A stretch of 64,000 nt of DNA from Verrucomicrobiota bacterium (GCA_027622665.1 JAQBYT010000001.1:224001-288000); one strand, 5' to 3'. Numbered from the stretch's first letter, positions 14,253-23,767 are shown. Made by a program: numbers and translations. The notes: generated by a model not told the origin, from the letters alone.

Positions 14253-17045
14253 TTAGTCTTCGTTTCGCGTTTTCCAAGTCAAACCCGTGGTTGATTGACC
14301 ATCACCATTCGGTATTAAATAACTGGCTATGATGCCTGCTAGAAAGCAGGAGGCGACCCCTGCAAAGGCATAAAACCAGGAATGTACGGGATGCCAGGTT
14401 TTTAGTGAAAATACGACGGCAGCCGAGGCCGCAAGGCCGATCAGGGTTCCTTTTGCGTGGGCTTTTTCGGCGAAGATGGCCAAAAGGAATAGTCCACCCA
14501 GACCTCCACCGAAGAGACCAAGAAAGCCGACGAACTGATCCCACAGAGACTTGATTTCAGTCCCCGCCAAAAAGAGGGCGAGAGCTATGCCCGCTACACC
14601 CACCGCGACCGTTGCGATACGAGCTACACGGAGCTTTTCGGTGGCAGTGGAGCTGGGCCGGTAACGGGCATGGAAGTCGATTGTGACGGCGGCGGCTACG
14701 CTGTTCATACTGCTGTCGAGACTAGACATCGCTGCTGCGAAGACGCCCGCGATCACGAGTCCTGCGATTCCTTCGGGCAGCTGTGCAACGACATAAAAGG
14801 GCAGTATGGCATCGGCGGTGGAGAGATGGGGGTCGAGGGTTTCAGGGTGGTTGGCGAAGAAGACGTATAGGGCGGCTCCGACGAGAAAGAAAAGAAGGGT
14901 TGCGGGGACGGTGAGAAAGGCATTTGTCCAGATGCTACGGGCAGAGGTCTTTTCGTCCTTGGTCGTCAGGTAGCGCTGGACTACGGTTTGGTCGCTTCCG
15001 TAACTGATTAAACTAGCTGCGAGACCCCCAAGCAGAAGGGTCCATAAAGTAGGTTCTGAAAAATTCCAACGGAGGTCTATATAGTTAAGCTTTTCGGCGG
15101 ATTGCGCTTGATCAATTAAACTCTGAAAACCACCCACTTCTCCGGCAATAGAAGCAACTACATAGACCGCTCCTCCGAGCAGAACGAACACCTGCAGGAC
15201 ATCTGTCCAGATAACGGCTTCAATGCCGCCGAGGGTTACGTATATGATGCAGAGAACCCCCATTACTAGGATGCAAGTGGTGACGTCCACTCCCGTAACG
15301 ACCGATAAGGCAAGAGATGGCAAAAGCAGAACTATTCCTATTCTAGCCAATTGTAGGAAAATAAAAAAGCCACTTGCGACTAACCTAACAGAAGCGTCGA
15401 ACCTTTTTTCAAGATATTCGTATGCGGTGGTTACGTCCAATTTTCGATAAAAAGGAAGAAAGCAGAATACGATCAGAGGAGCTACGAGAAGTATGGGAAG
15501 ATTGCCGAAGAGATAGGTCCAGTCAGTTGCATAGGCTTTGGCAGGGAGCGCCATGAAGGTGATGGCACTCAATTGAGTTCCGAAGATACTTAGGCCTGCT
15601 GCCCACCAAGGGATACGACCACCTGCCTTGAAGAAGTCTTCCGGTGTCTTTTCTTTTCCCACCAAGCGTATGCCGATAAAAACAAGAAACGCTAGATAAA
15701 GCGCTACCGCCGCATAGTCCAGAGGACCGAATCCTTCACTCCTTTGGGGTTCTCCCAAGAGAACTTTTGCCGTTCGGACGCCGGGAGAGGTTTCTCCGGT
15801 AGGTATGACGATGCCCCCGTTCCATGCCACTGCCTGTGTCGTTACAGGAAATGGGATTTCTGCTTCGCCGACTTTGGTCCAACTGTCCGTTACTGCGTGG
15901 TAAGCAAGAATGTCCTGAGAAAAGCCGGTGTGTTGTTCGTGAAAACGTAGGTGTTGGGTCTTCAGTTCCGCAAGTTCGGTGGAGTTCGTTTCGTTGCTGT
16001 CTTCTCCACTCCTATCAAGTTCGACTATGCGCTCATTCAACTTTTCGATCTCGAGGAATCGTTGACCATCGGCTCCTCCGAAAACGAGGATATGGGCAAC
16101 GCCAATGGGAGCGCAGGTACCCGCCATTATGCAACGGGGTTGACCATCGCCAGTCGAGATTTCGGCGAGTGGTGACCAGGTCTTGTCCGAGGGATCGAAC
16201 CTGTAAGCGTCGGTGAGCATCTCGGTCGCTTTTCCCGAATGTGGATTGCGACCGCTAAAGAGATAGAGACAATCGTTCTCTCCGTTGCTTTGAGACGCGG
16301 CTAAGGGCAGAATCCGAGGTGGTCCTGACCACGGGGGCAATTCCTCCCATGCCAACTCTGCGTCCGGTTTGGAGAGGTCTAGCGACCAGAAGTTGTTGGT
16401 GGCGTCCCCTCCCATCTTTTCCTGTCCACCCATTAGATAAACGATGTCGTCTACCATTGCCCCTCCCATAAAGGCCAATGGGCGAGGTAAGTTCGGGAGA
16501 CGTTGCAGTTTTAGTTCGCGTTCCTCGGGCAACCATTGAAGGCGAAAGACGTCGTCGTGGCACCGTTCGGCGTCGCAACCACCGATGCACAGGAGTCCCT
16601 TTTCGGTAGAGATGGCCACACCGTAAGCGGAGGACTTGAGTAGTTCTAGTCTCGGCGAGGTAAACCAGTTGGATTTGGGTTTGCCGTCCGCTTCTTTCTC
16701 TAGCACGTAAACATCGTTCCACCAAACCTTCTGGCCTCCTCTCCATGACGGTAAATCCGGAAAGTTTGCTCCACCTGCCACCAGCAAGGCATCGCCGTGA
16801 ACTCCTACGAATGGTCCGGCCAATCCCGCTTGCTTGACTTCTCCTGAAGCAGGGGGTAGGTCGGGCAGGTTGGCACCCGACCAGTCGAAGGGCTGGATGA
16901 GAACTTTTTTAGCAGCAGCAAGCCAAGATCCCGAGAAAACGAAGACAAGCAGCAAGGACAGCAGAATCTTCCGTATCGATTTGACCAAGCCTAGAAGCGA
17001 TCTCATGGATCGACAAAAGTTAGTTCCGTCGGGATCAGTTCTCAA
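14253..17045 (-). CDS. Kelch-type N-acetylneuraminate epimerase (NanM-like) fused to a sodium:solute symporter
   Basis: N-terminal part has AGGANFP, GGCD, GETSPGVRT kelch mutarotase motifs. C-terminal part has WWAAGLSIFGTQLSAITF, TAYEYLEKRF, AVIWTD, SDQTVVQRYL, AAAMSSLDS. Start uncertain (alternative ATG 17006). Confidence 0.9.
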   Translation of the reverse strand: MRTDPDGTNFCRSMRSLLGLVKSIRKILLSLLLVFVFSGSWLAAAKKVLIQPFDWSGANLPDLPPASGEVKQAGLAGPFVGVHGDALLVAGGANFPDLPSWRGGQKVWWNDVYVLEKEADGKPKSNWFTSPRLELLKSSAYGVAISTEKGLLCIGGCDAERCHDDVFRLQWLPEERELKLQRLPNLPRPLAFMGGAMVDDIVYLMGGQEKMGGDATNNFWSLDLSKPDAELAWEELPPWSGPPRILPLAASQSNGENDCLYLFSGRNPHSGKATEMLTDAYRFDPSDKTWSPLAEISTGDGQPRCIMAGTCAPIGVAHILVFGGADGQRFLEIEKLNERIVELDRSGEDSNETNSTELAELKTQHLRFHEQHTGFSQDILAYHAVTDSWTKVGEAEIPFPVTTQAVAWNGGIVIPTGETSPGVRTAKVLLGEPQRSEGFGPLDYAAVALYLAFLVFIGIRLVGKEKTPEDFFKAGGRIPWWAAGLSIFGTQLSAITFMALPAKAYATDWTYLFGNLPILLVAPLIVFCFLPFYRKLDVTTAYEYLEKRFDASVRLVASGFFIFLQLARIGIVLLLPSLALSVVTGVDVTTCILVMGVLCIIYVTLGGIEAVIWTDVLQVFVLLGGAVYVVASIAGEVGGFQSLIDQAQSAEKLNYIDLRWNFSEPTLWTLLLGGLAASLISYGSDQTVVQRYLTTKDEKTSARSIWTNAFLTVPATLLFFLVGAALYVFFANHPETLDPHLSTADAILPFYVVAQLPEGIAGLVIAGVFAAAMSSLDSSMNSVAAAVTIDFHARYRPSSTATEKLRVARIATVAVGVAGIALALFLAGTEIKSLWDQFVGFLGLFGGGLGGLFLLAIFAEKAHAKGTLIGLAASAAVVFSLKTWHPVHSWFYAFAGVASCFLAGIIASYLIPNGDGQSTTGLTWKTRNED

Positions 17046-18424: not shown

Positions 18425-18580
18425 ATGAAACCGACATATAATCCGTCTAAAGTGCGCAGAGCTCGTAAGTGCGGGTTTCGCAAACGCAACAGTACGAGCG
18501 CGGGCCGAAATATCCTAAGGAATCGGCGGCGTAAAGGGCGTAAGCGTTTAACTGCTTCTGTGGCACGTCGCTTCCGCTAG
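18425..18580 (+). CDS. rpmH: 50S ribosomal protein L34
   Basis: Manual translation [51 protein letters not shown] (below the ORF-track cutoff). Confidence 0.96.
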
Positions 18581-18588
18581 ATGTTGCT

Positions 18589-18972
18589 ATTTTAAGGCAA
18601 AAATCAGTCAACGGTTGCGGTTTTGGCTTCAAGTCTAAAAGCCGCATAAGAAAGCGTGAAGAATTCCAAACCGTTAAACAGAAAGGCAAGCGTGTACGCA
18701 CGAATCATTTCTTGGCGCAACTTCTTATTGACGACGAAAGACCAACGGCTGAAAGAAGGATCGGAATAATTGTAACAAGACGGCTAGGAAACGCCGTCAA
18801 GCGCAACCGAGCTAAAAGAGTCTTTAGAGAGTTGTTCAGGAATCATAAAGAAATTTTGCCCGAGAGAAGCGATTTGGTAGTAATTCCGCACTCAACTTTT
18901 TTTTCGCAACCCTATTCGATGCTTGAGTCGGATTTTCTACAGACATGCAAACGCTTTAAAACCGACAGATGA
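18589..18972 (+). CDS. rnpA: Ribonuclease P protein component; start codon unresolved
   Basis: RNR motif GNAVKRNRAKRVFRE; the conserved N-terminus FKSKSRIRKREEFQTVKQKG lies upstream of the ORF-track TTG at 18712; located between rpmH and yidC. 18589 is a possible ATT start. Confidence 0.88.
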   Translation: MLRQKSVNGCGFGFKSKSRIRKREEFQTVKQKGKRVRTNHFLAQLLIDDERPTAERRIGIIVTRRLGNAVKRNRAKRVFRELFRNHKEILPERSDLVVIPHSTFFSQPYSMLESDFLQTCKRFKTDR

Positions 18973-21065
18973 AAAACTACCTCATTGGCTTCAGCCTAAT
19001 CCTATCCGCTGCTTACCTTTATATGGAGCAGGCAAAAGTACAGCAGGAAAACGCGGAAGAAAACCAGCGGCATGATACGAGCTCACGCCAAGATCAGAGC
19101 GATGGTAATTATACAGCACCCAACATAATTGATGTCGCGGACGGCGGAATGCGATCGGATGTCAACGCATCACCTCTTTCTGCGAAGATTCCTCAAGAGG
19201 TTAAAACATATGAGGGACTTGTCGGCGATAGCTCTTCTTTTGAATTCACTACTCTGGGCGGAGCCATCAGTGCGGTACATCTGGAAGAGGCAGAACGCCT
19301 CAAAAAAAGCTATGACATGATATTCTCTACGAATGATAATGGCAAAGGCATTGAAGGTAATGCATTTAGCATGTCGTTCGAAAACCATGACGGCGACCCT
19401 CTGGACAACCCATTACCAGGCTACGATTCGAGAGCTTACGAAATCGCCAGTGGAGACTTGAATTCCAAGGTGACTTTCCTAAATCGCACGGGCAACGTTG
19501 AGATTCGTCGCGAATATTTCCGGGAAGCAAACGAAACCTATGTGATTAGGCATAGAACAACCGTGATTAACAGAGGTGACTCGAGCCTAAAGCTCGATAG
19601 GATTAGGTTCGGCATAGGTTCGGCATTCCCTATACCCCGAAAATTTAATTTCATCGACCAAGCCGCGTCTTACATGCATGTCGGCTACTTCAATTCTGGA
19701 AACCCTCAAGAGGCGGGCTGGGGGTGTGCTAAATGCAGTGGTCGCATTGACGGGGAAACTGAAGAGTTTTTTCAGGTTAACGAAATGGATGACTACGACC
19801 GGCTTCACGAGGGGAAAAAATTATCAGAAGCCAAATGGGCTTCAGTGAACAATCAGTTTTTCGTTAGCATTCTTCGGCCTAAGGAAGAAAAGGATGCTGT
19901 TGTTCGAGGAATGCCAATTGAGCGTAGTACTGACGGCAACGCCAGCAATAGGGAACAAGGAGTAACGGGATCCATCTCAATTCCTTTCGGAGAGATTCCT
20001 CCCGGAGAAAGCAGAAGCGTCGAGTGCATCTACTATGCAGGGCCAAAAGATTATATGATACTCTCCTCACTGGGAATGGAACAGGACAAGGTTATGCAGT
20101 TTAACCCATTCGAGTGGGTTTCTGGGCCGATGAATTCGCTTCTAAACAAGTTGCACGATATTCTAGGCAACTTCGGCCTAGCGATTATCTTCCTGACCAT
20201 CCTCCTTAAATTGGTGCTGTGGCCCCTTACCGCAAAAGCCACACGATCCCAGAAAAGAATGCAGGCGTTGCAGGAACCAATGGCGAAACTCCGTGAAAAA
20301 CACAAAAAAGATTCACAGAAAATGAATCAGGAAATGATGAAGTTTTACAAGGAACAAGGGGTCAACCCATTTGCGGGTTGCTGGCCTATCCTAGTTCAGA
20401 TGCCTATTTTCTTGGGAATGTTTTATATGCTTCGTTCGGCTGCCGAACTGTACGGGCAAAGCTTTCTATGGGTAAGTGATCTTTCCGAGCAAGACAATGT
20501 CGCAGACATTGCGGGATTTTCGATAAATGCTCTGCCCTTTGTAATGTTGGCCACACAGTGGTTTCAGATGAAGCTTACACCAATGCAACTTGGTCCTGAT
20601 GCCAGTGATTCTCAGCGTATCAACGCGAAGATGATGCGAATGATGCCGTTCATGTTCCTCGTGTTTTTGTATTTCTTTTCTTCTGCACTGGTACTGTATT
20701 GGACAGTGCAGAATACAATGAGCATCATTCAGACACTCATTACGAAGAAGGGAAAATCTCCGAAAGAAATCGAAACCGAAAGAAGTATTTTAGCGAAAGA
20801 TGAAGCAAAGGACGGTCAGAAAAAACCTGATGCCGATTTCATCGAGGAAGAGGAAAGGCAACATCGCCAAGTTCTCGGTTTAAAGTTGCGCGGGAAGCTA
20901 AACAAAAAACAAATCGATGAAATTTATCGGAGGCTCATGGAAAAATATCATCCCGACAAAGTGCGTAACCTTGGGGCCAAGCGGCAGGATGAGGCCATGC
21001 AGAAAAAAGAACGGCTGGAGGCTGCCTACGAATTTCTCTTGAAGAAACTTGCCAACAAATCATAA
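18969..21065 (+). CDS. yidC: Membrane protein insertase YidC with C-terminal J-domain
   Basis: YAGPK, GNFGLAIIFLTILLKLVLWPL, NPFAGCWPILVQMPIF, FLWVSDLS, ALVLYW motifs; tail contains KYHPDKV. Confidence 0.95.
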   Translation: MKNYLIGFSLILSAAYLYMEQAKVQQENAEENQRHDTSSRQDQSDGNYTAPNIIDVADGGMRSDVNASPLSAKIPQEVKTYEGLVGDSSSFEFTTLGGAISAVHLEEAERLKKSYDMIFSTNDNGKGIEGNAFSMSFENHDGDPLDNPLPGYDSRAYEIASGDLNSKVTFLNRTGNVEIRREYFREANETYVIRHRTTVINRGDSSLKLDRIRFGIGSAFPIPRKFNFIDQAASYMHVGYFNSGNPQEAGWGCAKCSGRIDGETEEFFQVNEMDDYDRLHEGKKLSEAKWASVNNQFFVSILRPKEEKDAVVRGMPIERSTDGNASNREQGVTGSISIPFGEIPPGESRSVECIYYAGPKDYMILSSLGMEQDKVMQFNPFEWVSGPMNSLLNKLHDILGNFGLAIIFLTILLKLVLWPLTAKATRSQKRMQALQEPMAKLREKHKKDSQKMNQEMMKFYKEQGVNPFAGCWPILVQMPIFLGMFYMLRSAAELYGQSFLWVSDLSEQDNVADIAGFSINALPFVMLATQWFQMKLTPMQLGPDASDSQRINAKMMRMMPFMFLVFLYFFSSALVLYWTVQNTMSIIQTLITKKGKSPKEIETERSILAKDEAKDGQKKPDADFIEEEERQHRQVLGLKLRGKLNKKQIDEIYRRLMEKYHPDKVRNLGAKRQDEAMQKKERLEAAYEFLLKKLANKS

Positions 21066-21125: not shown

Positions 21126-21884
21126 ATGTCCGGGCACAGCAAATGGGCTACAACCAAAAGGCACAAGGCTACTGTAGACGCCAAACGTGGTAAGATTTTC
21201 AGCGTTATCAGTAAAGAACTTATGCTAACTGCACGTGATGGCGGAGGGGACGCTGAATGCAACCCACGCCTGCGTACTTTAATTCTAAAGGCCAAGCAAG
21301 CCAACATGCCGGCAGAAAATGTGGAGCGAGCGATCAAGAAGGGTACGGGCGAACTTGAAGGCACAATAATCGAAGAACTGCTTTACGAAGGCTACGCTCC
21401 TGGAGGAGTTGGCTTAATAATAGAAGTTACGACAGACAATAAAAACAGGTCCGCATCTGAAGTCAGGAGTACGCTAGGGAAAGGGGGAGGGAACCTCGCG
21501 GGCACAGGTGCTCTCTCATACAACTTTAAGCGCAAAGGCCAATTCCTAATTGCCAAAGACAAAGTCGATGAAGATACGCTCACAGAACTAGCTCTTGAAA
21601 ACGATGCGAATGACGTTGTTGCCGAAGAGGAGCATTTCGAAGTTCTTTCCGAAGTGAGAGCATTCGATAAATTGACACAAGCACTGAATGCTGCACAAAT
21701 TGAGACCGATTCCGCAGAGCTCGTCTATCTCCCGGAAAACCTTATCGCCGTCTCGGACGAAAACGTAGCTCGTCAAGTATTGCGCCTAATTGACAACCTC
21801 GACGAGTTGGAAGACGTTAAGGCTGTTCACAGCAATTATGACATAGATGAAGCTTTGATTGAGACCCACGCAGCACAAGGATAA
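21126..21884 (+). CDS. yebC: YebC/PmpR family protein
   Basis: MSGHSKWATTKRHK, NPRLR, YEGYAPGGV, TDNKNR. Confidence 0.95.
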   Translation: MSGHSKWATTKRHKATVDAKRGKIFSVISKELMLTARDGGGDAECNPRLRTLILKAKQANMPAENVERAIKKGTGELEGTIIEELLYEGYAPGGVGLIIEVTTDNKNRSASEVRSTLGKGGGNLAGTGALSYNFKRKGQFLIAKDKVDEDTLTELALENDANDVVAEEEHFEVLSEVRAFDKLTQALNAAQIETDSAELVYLPENLIAVSDENVARQVLRLIDNLDELEDVKAVHSNYDIDEALIETHAAQG

Positions 21885-21892
21885 AGAACTCA

Positions 21893-23767
21893 TTGTCTTG
21901 TGCTGAGATAAAGTTAAGCACAGGCAGGAAAAACAAAGGAGTTTCCCATAAAGTGATCGGAAGCAAAACAGATCCCGATTACCTAAACGGAGTTGACGAG
22001 GTTGGTCTTGTAAAACCAAAGGAATTTCGTGACGACTCACCCTTTCAATTTGAGAGAGGAGGGGAAATCGCATCCATCAATTTACGTTATGAAACATATG
22101 GAGAGCTTGCTCCGAACAAGGAAAATGCGATCCTTATATGCCATGCCCTAACGGGCGACCATCATTGTGCCGGGATTCATTCGCCAGGGGACACGAAACC
22201 AGGTTGGTGGAACCAAATGATAGGTCCCGGCAAGGCCATCGATACAAAACGATTCTTTGTAATTTGCTCTAATTGCCTTGGTGCATGCCAAGGTTCCACT
22301 GGTCCAACTTCGCTCAATGAAGCTACGGGGAAACCTTACGGCATCTCATTTCCAGAGTTAACCATAGGCGATATGGTTTTCGCCCAAAAGCGTTTAGTGA
22401 AACATCTCGGCATCGACAAGCTCTATGCCGTCGTAGGAGGCAGTATGGGCGGGATGCAGGCGTTGCAGTGGGCAGTGTCCTGCCCAAAGTTAGTAGCACG
22501 AACCGTAGTGATCGCCGCAACCACACGGCACAACGCCCAAACCATCGCCTTTAACGACGTTGGCCGAGCCGCCATCCAGGGCGATCCGGAATGGAACGGT
22601 GGAGACTATCCGTCCGACGGGGGTCCAGAGGTCGGACTCGCGATCGCCAGAATGATGGCTCACATCACTTACCTTTCGGGCAAAGGCATGGAGCAAAAGT
22701 TCGGTAGATCTCGCCGCGAGCAAATAGACGGTAACGCAACGAAGTCAGTAGAGGCACACTTTGGGGTTGAGTTCGAGGTTGAAAGCTACCTACGCCATCA
22801 GGGGAAGACCTTCGTAAACCGCTTTGACGCGAATACCTACCTGCATCTCACCAAGGCTCTCGATCGATTCGATCTTCATGCGGAGGAGGGAGGACTCGGA
22901 CAATCCCTCAGTCGAATAAATGCCCGAACTCTTGCTGTAGGTTTTACATCCGACTGGCTATACTCTCCCCAGCAAAATCGTAAAATTGTGGAAACTCTCC
23001 AATGCTTGGGTAAGGATGCTTCCTATGCTGAAATCGATCATGATTTCGGTCACGATTCCTTCTTGCTCAAATCCGAACGATTCCATCGTCTTGTACAAGT
23101 TTTTCTGGAGGGAGCAGACCAAAGAGAACTTGATCGACAAAGTTCTAGGCCCGATTCGATCACTCGTACCGAAGCAAAAAAAGAAGCTGATTTTCGAGTA
23201 ATAGATGAATGGGTTGGGCAAGGCGAAAGCGTTCTTGACCTAGGGTGCGGTTGCGGAATTCTCCTGGAACACTTGGCCAAGACCAAACAAGTACGAGGTT
23301 TAGGCGTGGACATTGATATTGAGAAAGTCATTGGCTGTGTCTCACGTGCTGCTCCGGTCTATCAAGGTGATGTTCGCAAAACTCTTGCAGGCTTTCCCGA
23401 TGATTCTTTCGACTGGATCGTATTCTCCCGCACCATGGAAGAATTAAACAACCCATGTGAAGTCATTGAAAAAGCTCTACAGGTCGCCAAGCGAGTGGTG
23501 GTAAGTTTTGTTAATCACGGTTATTGGCGTAATCGCCTCCACTATTTCTTAAACGGTAGTCGGATCATAAACGACGTATACGACAAAGCTTGGCACGAAC
23601 GGGTCCCCGTCAACCCTGTATCAATCCGTGATTTCGAAAATTTCTGTCGTGACCGCAACCTAGTCCTCCGAAGGAGAGTGTGCCTAGGCGGAGACTGGAA
23701 AACCCATCGTAGAGTACTCCCAAACCTACTTGCCGGAGTGGCAATATATGAGGTAGGAAGAACTTAG
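21893..23767 (+). CDS. metX: Homoserine O-acyltransferase fused to MetW methyltransferase-like domain
   Basis: CHALTGD, GGSMGG, RFDANTY, GHDSFL, then VLDLGCGCG SAM-binding MetW domain; start uncertain. Confidence 0.92.
   Translation: MSCAEIKLSTGRKNKGVSHKVIGSKTDPDYLNGVDEVGLVKPKEFRDDSPFQFERGGEIASINLRYETYGELAPNKENAILICHALTGDHHCAGIHSPGDTKPGWWNQMIGPGKAIDTKRFFVICSNCLGACQGSTGPTSLNEATGKPYGISFPELTIGDMVFAQKRLVKHLGIDKLYAVVGGSMGGMQALQWAVSCPKLVARTVVIAATTRHNAQTIAFNDVGRAAIQGDPEWNGGDYPSDGGPEVGLAIARMMAHITYLSGKGMEQKFGRSRREQIDGNATKSVEAHFGVEFEVESYLRHQGKTFVNRFDANTYLHLTKALDRFDLHAEEGGLGQSLSRINARTLAVGFTSDWLYSPQQNRKIVETLQCLGKDASYAEIDHDFGHDSFLLKSERFHRLVQVFLEGADQRELDRQSSRPDSITRTEAKKEADFRVIDEWVGQGESVLDLGCGCGILLEHLAKTKQVRGLGVDIDIEKVIGCVSRAAPVYQGDVRKTLAGFPDDSFDWIVFSRTMEELNNPCEVIEKALQVAKRVVVSFVNHGYWRNRLHYFLNGSRIINDVYDKAWHERVPVNPVSIRDFENFCRDRNLVLRRRVCLGGDWKTHRRVLPNLLAGVAIYEVGRT

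Follow-up and report, generated by a model that had tools for sequence, protein, structure and literature searches.

A J-domain fused to YidC in a family of Verrucomicrobiota, with and without its HPD motif

Introduction

Why would the only YidC insertase found in a bacterial genome end in a J-domain, and what would such a domain do there? The question is raised by a 64,000-nucleotide stretch of DNA (the window; positions are counted from its first letter) from a Verrucomicrobiota bacterium (GCA_027622665.1, JAQBYT010000001.1:224001-288000), in which a plus-strand open reading frame (ORF) at 18969-21065 encodes a 698-residue protein that begins as YidC and runs, with no internal stop, into a C-terminal J-domain. 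To our knowledge, no dedicated coupling of a bacterial YidC to Hsp70 is known. An earlier note, made from the sequence alone, had suggested that this protein could dock DnaK directly at the insertion site. According to the accessible parts of published reports, YidC makes contact with helix 59 of the rRNA through its basic C-terminus, on which ribosome binding depends (PMC5186731), and DnaK modulates the YidC-dependent insertion of a tail-anchored protein in Escherichia coli (PMC3426401). Our comparison leads us to favor, at a probability of roughly 0.45, a tail with two faces: a basic face would replace the ribosome-binding tail throughout the family, while stimulation of DnaK, probably weakened, would be confined to the lineages that retain the HPD motif.

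Results

The fusion is real, fixed in its lineage and family-wide, and it affects the essential housekeeping yidC gene. The frame continues from the last transmembrane (TM) segment of YidC into the J part just as the earlier note had read it, with the J-like stretch beginning at H632 (nucleotide 20862) and the HPD motif at residues 661-663 (20949-20957, plus strand). Pfam 60KD_IMP matched residues 402-594 at 197 bits (cut-off, 35), YidC_periplas matched residues 266-388 at 41 bits, and NCBIfam TIGR03592 matched the protein at 210 bits (cut-off, 84). The Pfam DnaJ family PF00226, which the note had expected at the C-terminus, was found at residues 638-692, marginally over the whole protein (27.9 bits against a cut-off of 27.8) and at 32.4 bits (E 1e-7) for the tail alone. 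The gene order at the locus, rpmH-rnpA-yidC-yebC by Pfam, and the absence of any other 60KD_IMP match in the source genome (93.5% complete) confirmed its assignment as the housekeeping insertase.

Among the 120 best homologues (of 873 found), 116 carried the full tail and 4 were truncated. Assembled contigs from the four sequencing runs examined gave a similar picture: one DNA contig crossed all 3.7 kb of the stretch without a gap, differing by 13 substitutions, and a second DNA contig and two RNA-library contigs, which alone are not proof of transcription, bridged the junction of TM6, linker and J-domain with no indel within the ORF. An assembly error or a lost stop joining yidC to a separate J gene, against which the note had cautioned, can be practically dismissed given the independent contigs and the same fusion in 116 of 120 homologues; moreover, no separate J gene lay 3' of yidC in the sole outgroup genome (G090) whose match continued across stops. 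That match, which reached residue 693 over three stops, was found to consist of a basic extension followed by yebC. Codon 656 (window 20935) is polymorphic in the species, encoding leucine in the source genome and histidine in three of the four runs, and the position is arginine in almost all other family members.

The distribution of the fusion was examined in 151 genomes of the order Opitutales, all 76 genomes of the window's family, and 300 further genomes of the phylum. Matches were obtained in 147 of the 151 Opitutales genomes, and the tail lay in one open frame only in 7 genomes of the window's family; no YidC-J fusion was seen in the 140 other matching genomes. In the family, the C-terminus was readable in 68 genomes. 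Core and tail shared a single ORF in 67 of them, the other held a tail fragment at a contig end, and in the remaining 8 genomes the region or its 3' end was missing. Accordingly, all 67 readable YidCs of the family are fusions, and the arrangement of a stop followed by a separate J gene, which the note had considered for the relatives, was not found in them. By comparison, each of the 24 outgroup YidCs that were read ends in a K/R-rich tail and has no J-domain. A profile of TM plus tail matched 285 of the 300 further genomes, with a best E of 3e-27 against 7e-94 for the source genome; none among the matches listed extended through the J part, and the other 141 matches were weaker. The best 150 of 1,495 matches in 1.84 billion representatives comprised 7 with both parts, 111 with YidC only and 32 with J only, and all 7 two-part matches resembled the source family, with no fusion outside it, in a search that would miss a distant independent fusion below about 51 bits. 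Homologue names place the group among metagenome-assembled genomes of Opitutales/Opitutia, and the sequencing runs with this DNA are aquatic, mostly marine or estuarine. Separately, YidC matches of four other Opitutales genomes lie in longer open frames of 830-1007 residues (G003:C1:695142-696668, G044:C20:3613-5109, G131:C24:6815-8362 and G067:C5:184149-185429), which may hide other fusions or merely upstream open sequence.

No description of a YidC-J fusion was found in the published literature, in a search that left subscription journals largely outside, and a J-domain survey (PMC10410713) mentions neither YidC, 60KD nor insertase in its main text and one supplement. Automatic annotation can already see the architecture, since some database proteins bear both Pfam labels; the names shown for them read YidC only. 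The fusion joins two known families, YidC and the J-domain, in what we take to be a new way.

Comparison and trees show that the J-domain replaced a basic tail and derives from the DjlA-type group. The K/R-rich tails of the 18 outgroups used average 32 residues with a net charge of +7. In a tree of the J part, built on only 66 columns and not resolving the exact donor, all the tails fell into a single clade (98/100), with small TM-linker-J proteins of DjlA type around it, and the top NCBIfam matches of the tail were ActJ and DjlA, each under its own cut-off, in agreement with the DjlA-type resemblance proposed in the note. Full DjlA identity did not extend to the fusion, which scored 25.9 bits against a cut-off of 162 for PRK09430 and has no TerB domain. 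The GC content of the J part (0.46) and its GC content at third codon positions (0.54) equal the values of the membrane core and give no sign of recent acquisition.

The HPD motif was retained in 10 of 68 family genomes, distributed by genus as 8/8 in g1, 1/1 in g90, 1/1 in g91, 0/39 in g2 and 0/19 in g3. The remaining 58 of 68 hold a J fold without HPD, as in the Pam16/Tim16 type, to which the source-genome protein, having HPD, does not belong. A YidC-core tree of 96 rows, including 18 outgroups and leaving out the g90 fragment, recovered the family as one clade (Shimodaira-Hasegawa-like approximate likelihood ratio, 100), in which g91-like rows branched first and g1 next, and the 58 HPD-less rows formed one clade (99). 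Because the HPD lineages are basal and the HPD-less rows form a single clade, the tree indicates that HPD is ancestral in the family and was lost once in the clade of 58. Three metagenomic proteins within g1 (P0024, P0026 and P0028; 84-89% identity) lost HPD separately. In one g2 genome, the YidC (L078; G191:C299) groups inside g3 and the genome holds a second, fragmented copy, which is probably bin contamination.

The comparison further shows that the J fold is under purifying selection even without HPD. For the J region, disjoint pairs of sequences gave ratios of nonsynonymous to synonymous substitution rates (dN/dS) of 0.04 for g1 (3 pairs), 0.10 for g2 (9 pairs) and 0.12 for g3 (3 pairs), with values elsewhere in the protein of 0.02-0.04 for the membrane core and 0.11-0.25 for the periplasmic part. 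In the HPD-less clade, where the mean over J columns is 10.6 changes on the tree, the columns of the motif show 9, 18 and 26 changes, and R633, R656, K672, K679 and K680 show 0-2. Since most members lack HPD and the domain is nevertheless kept under selection, the tail probably has a second job. Among the 20 HPD-lineage rows (mean, 1.9 changes), P662 is constant, and the single change of D663 and the three of H661 all fall at the g1 tips P0024, P0026 and P0028; the H and P codons of the motif vary synonymously among HPD-bearing genomes. Relative to the donors, basic residues are new at R633, K/R672, K/R680 and K/R682 and inherited at K679 and usually R656. The basic residues that the HPD-less clade conserves were already fixed in the HPD lineages, which suggests that the second function predates the loss of HPD. 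The J part alone carries a mean net charge of +12 with HPD and +8 without it. A tolerated chance fusion, carried along as a neutral passenger and kept only for the stability of the protein end, would fit the wide variation of YidC tail length among relatives, but we consider it very improbable in view of its occurrence in 67 of 67 readable family YidCs, dN/dS values of 0.04-0.12 and the near-invariant basic residues.

The tail of an HPD-less relative was modeled as a J fold with a predicted local distance difference test (pLDDT) score of 92.8, and hhalign linked it to the source-genome tail at a probability of 99.3. Its best fold matches were Tim16 (Z 8.8, root mean square deviation 2.2, 63 residues aligned, 11% identity) and HscB (Z 8.6), scores that are tied, modest and of a size that small helical folds commonly give. 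With the HPD-less tail as query, Foldseek returned nothing at E ≤0.001, and J-domains still headed the list; Pfam DnaJ matched 6 of 19 HPD-less tails at E ≤1, the first of these below the cut-off. A complex prediction of the J tail with its own DnaK, ATP and Mg gave a score of 0.00 without controls and was weighed neither way.

We next consider the surface that would face DnaK. As described in the available portion of PMC8215388, DnaK is contacted by the basic J residues R22, K26, R27, K48 and K51, and these positions were mapped through an alignment to E. coli DnaJ. In the source genome they correspond to D650, R654, R655, E681 and E684, two basic and three acidic, so that R22, K48 and K51 are charge-reversed, and F47 is replaced by lysine (alanine or threonine in most donors). 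Mean counts of basic and acidic residues at the five positions were 2.6 and 0.4 in donors (24 rows), 3.0 and 1.4 in basal tails (5 rows), 1.1 and 3.1 in g1-like tails (16 rows), and 0.8 and 3.1 in HPD-less tails (58 rows); the positions of R22 and K48 were reversed in 16 of 16 g1-like rows. These counts indicate that the contact set is not absolute in HPD-intact donors, yet that the reversals in the source genome are atypical. The source-genome J nonetheless retains the basic residue after HPD as well as four (D35, K26, Y25 and H33) of the five J residues that a simulation study names as allosteric contacts in its accessible part (PMC13012618). The DnaK residues that meet the J-domain were unchanged in 27 of 27 family DnaKs (3 of 30 loci unread), and together with the intact contacts of a stand-alone J paralog, this indicates that the change lies in the fused domain and not in DnaK.

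From this pattern, HPD-dependent stimulation of DnaK by the source-genome tail seems plausible, and we lean toward it. DnaK docking at the insertase, as the note had envisaged it, thus stands as plausible for the source genome, where HPD is ancestral and constrained, although three of its five contacts are acidic; it cannot be the family-wide function, since 58 of 68 genomes lack HPD and the domain is under selection there. It might be argued that the source-genome tail is simply a working J co-chaperone bringing DnaK to where insertion occurs, the HPD-less relatives being a later and separate story. HPD in 10 of 10 genomes outside g2 and g3 with synonymous variation at its H and P codons, the retention of Y25, K26 and the basic residue after HPD, a J dN/dS of 0.04, as low as that of the membrane core, and the joint action of YidC and DnaK on E. 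coli tail-anchored proteins reported in the accessible part of PMC3426401 would all fit. We nevertheless judge this account unlikely, as the basic residues were fixed before HPD was lost, placing the second function earlier, and two DnaK contacts that are intact in 30 of 30 paralog loci are reversed in 16 of 16 g1-like rows. At the other extreme, the tail could already be a pseudo-J in the source genome, with only the basic docking face at work and HPD left as a structural relic. The charge reversals and the lysine at F47, the losses of HPD at the three g1 tips, the L/H polymorphism at position 656 and the 58 genomes that live without HPD speak for it. We hold it to be slightly less credible still, because HPD persists across proteins sharing only 50-60% identity, whereas its columns vary without restraint in proteins that have lost the motif, a contrast that points to selection on HPD beyond structure.

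The source genome encodes one DnaK and three further J proteins, namely DnaJ, a DjlA with TerB and J parts, and a membrane-anchored J protein. The last, a paralog of the fused domain (L154; G000:C47:129749-130333), was matched in 66 of 76 family genomes, including 26 of 26 near-complete ones, and matches to its N-terminal part were confined to the family. All 30 loci read encode it with HPD as well as K at position 22, R at 26 and K/R at 48, and in 28 of them htpG follows immediately; the net charge of the paralog ranges from -5 to +2 (14 loci scored), next to a basic fused tail. A pairing like that of Tim14 and Tim16, in which the tail would bind the J-domain of this HPD-intact paralog and thereby bring DnaK and HtpG to YidC, would account for the family-only N-terminus and htpG linkage of the paralog, for the opposite charges of the two proteins and for Tim16 leading the fold matches of an HPD-less tail. 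We regard it as quite improbable, however, since a co-occurrence confined to one family counts as a single event, the genes are unlinked, and the Tim16 score is tied with that of HscB in a range usual for small helical folds.

The architecture of the 698-residue protein was further delineated with an AlphaFold2 model from 87 sequences (mean pLDDT, 80.6), which comprises TM1, a periplasmic sandwich, five core helices, the linker and the J helices. Foldseek placed E. coli YidC (6al2) first for the full-length model (E 1e-28; TM-score 0.69 on the target); no J-domain was among the matches listed, the YidC part having filled the list. An ESM Atlas look-up of residues 560-698 gave one lead at 0.82, a YidC cluster. 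The predicted features, all on the plus strand, begin with a TM1 signal anchor (residues 4-19; 18978-19025), a model helix with a mean hydropathy of 1.66, followed by a periplasmic beta-sandwich at about residues 75-390 (19191-20138), supported by YidC_periplas, model strands and the folds 3bs6 and 3blc. The membrane core with TM2-TM6 (residues 402-594; 20172-20750), identified by 60KD_IMP and TIGR03592, has model helices at 402-433, 472-490, 521-536, 547-567 and 572-593. It is joined by a charged, net acidic and partly disordered linker (residues 595-629; 20751-20855; 7 K/R and 12 D/E; pLDDT <50 at 615-622) to the DjlA-type J-domain (residues 630-698; 20856-21062; 20 K/R and 9 D/E; Pfam DnaJ), which has helices I-III (model helices 627-636, 646-660 and 670-697) and no helix IV, with HPD between helices II and III. 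As the J tail follows six membrane spans, it should lie on the cytoplasmic side, as the note had assumed; the model has TM1 plus five core helices, and the side follows from the known YidC topology.

Within the periplasmic domain, a CxxC motif (C253 and C256; 19725-19736), seen in the alignment rows, marks a family-specific insert that usually has a third cysteine. The motif occurred in 77 of the 78 rows from the family, against 0 of 18 and 0 of 20 outgroup rows, and so marks another change particular to the family, which may form a disulfide or bind a metal; we take the insert to resemble, loosely, half of a DnaJ zinc-finger repeat. K414 is near-invariant in 87 aligned rows and is a candidate for the positive residue of the TM2 groove, which we take to be the counterpart of R366 in E. 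coli.

The neighboring genes lie on the same strand: rpmH, encoding ribosomal protein L34 (18425-18580; PF00468), rnpA (18616-18972; PF00825), which overlaps the start of yidC by 4 nucleotides and whose own start codon is uncertain, and, directly 3' of yidC, a yebC/TACO1-family gene (21126-21884; PF01709 and PF20772), an order common to most family and outgroup loci. In the source genome and five close relatives, no in-frame ATG, GTG or TTG precedes the conserved N-terminus of rnpA (window 18580-18712), and rnpA lacks a standard start in 6 of 64 family loci against 0 of 23 outgroups; a rare start, ATT or ATC 19 codons upstream, may be used in these loci. The yidD gene lay between rnpA and yidC in 0 of 68 family loci (58 with at least 700 nucleotides upstream) against 18 of 24 outgroup loci, and in the source genome it was found on another contig (L153:1462-1815), ahead of a gene for a chorismate-binding enzyme. 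The idea that the tail fills a gap left by a missing signal recognition particle (SRP), trigger factor or YidD was rejected, as all were found in the genome. Promoter and terminator scans of the locus returned sites no more numerous than in shuffled sequences. Elsewhere in the window, a 624-residue ORF at 21893-23767 combines a homoserine acyltransferase-like hydrolase domain with a MetW methyltransferase domain (Pfam), and a 930-residue ORF on the minus strand (14253-17045), judged from its translation, appears to join a soluble kelch-like mutarotase part to a sodium/solute symporter.

Discussion

The favored reading can be set out as a sequence of steps. The ancestor of the family, as comparison and trees show, swapped the short K/R-rich tail of its sole YidC for an acidic linker and a DjlA-type J-domain. 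The basic face, conserved in all lineages, would most likely dock YidC on rRNA at the ribosome exit site. The face toward DnaK was intact in the ancestor and remains so in the basal lineage; it is eroded yet selected in the lineage of the source genome, and the largest clade has lost it. In the source genome, the tail probably triggers ATP hydrolysis by DnaK beside the insertase groove with reduced affinity, and DnaK would there grip or hand over the cytoplasmic parts of substrates.

Several observations weigh against this reading. The new basic positions were chosen after viewing the alignment, making a count on them circular, and HPD-less tails are near neutral once the acidic linker is included (mean net charge, +1.8). 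The charge reversals at R22, K48 and K51 with lysine at F47 speak against residual activity toward DnaK, and HPD was lost separately at three tips within g1. The YidC-core tree came from a quick search and is rooted on a long outgroup branch. Phospholipids, SRP RNA or an acidic protein are equally conceivable as ligands of the basic face, and the genome encodes SRP/FtsY and trigger factor, leaving no targeting gap that needs filling.

Compared with known systems, the fusion shares with the six-TM YidC of E. coli its TM1, periplasmic beta-sandwich, five-helix core and rpmH-rnpA locus, and differs in ending with a folded J-domain of 70 residues instead of a short basic tail, in its cysteine insert and in having yidD elsewhere. 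Long charged cytoplasmic C-terminal extensions like that of the fusion occur in the YidCs of Rhodopirellula baltica and Oceanicaulis alexandrii and in YidC1/2 of Streptococcus mutans, which are reported to bind ribosomes (PMC8595059); no J-domain is mentioned in the accessible part of that report, whereas the fused tail is a recognizable J homologue with or without HPD. DjlA and the small TM-linker-J proteins of class C provide the closest J sequences and likewise hold a C-terminal J-domain without helix IV at the membrane. Unlike DjlA, the fusion lacks TerB, is tethered by an insertase and has basic and acidic positions swapped on helices II and III, and its genome has a DjlA of its own. Sec63 and Pam18/Tim14 also fix a J-domain at a membrane transport site to engage Hsp70, as described in the available text of PMC5773037; they are separate subunits at the exit of a translocation channel, while the fused J-domain is part of the insertase chain on the entry side, and no homology was seen outside the J-domain. 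The same portion of that source describes the degenerate J-like domain of Tim16 as binding the J-domain of Pam18 (PMC5773037). Pam16/Tim16 resembles the HPD-less relatives in keeping a J fold without HPD at a translocase and is the best fold match of one of them, but the source-genome copy has HPD, identity is 11%, the origin is independent and the partner is only a candidate.

A more far-reaching formulation, which we offer as doubtful, is that of a single-chain counterpart of the coupling between eukaryotic translocons and Hsp70, in which one face of the J-domain would sit on the ribosome exit and the other would fire DnaK at the emerging membrane protein; its descendants would grade from an active J to a Tim16-like pseudo-J, the DnaK role having possibly passed to the htpG-adjacent membrane J protein. 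The reach of the finding is limited to the one family of uncultured marine bacteria in which the fusion was found. Within it, the covalent YidC-J chain makes the question of coupling between YidC and DnaK directly testable, and the family offers a graded natural experiment, from an intact J-domain through one with HPD and an eroded DnaK face to an HPD-less J-domain under selection. This series illustrates the turning of a co-chaperone domain into a pseudo-J on an essential machine, as happened separately in mitochondrial Tim16.

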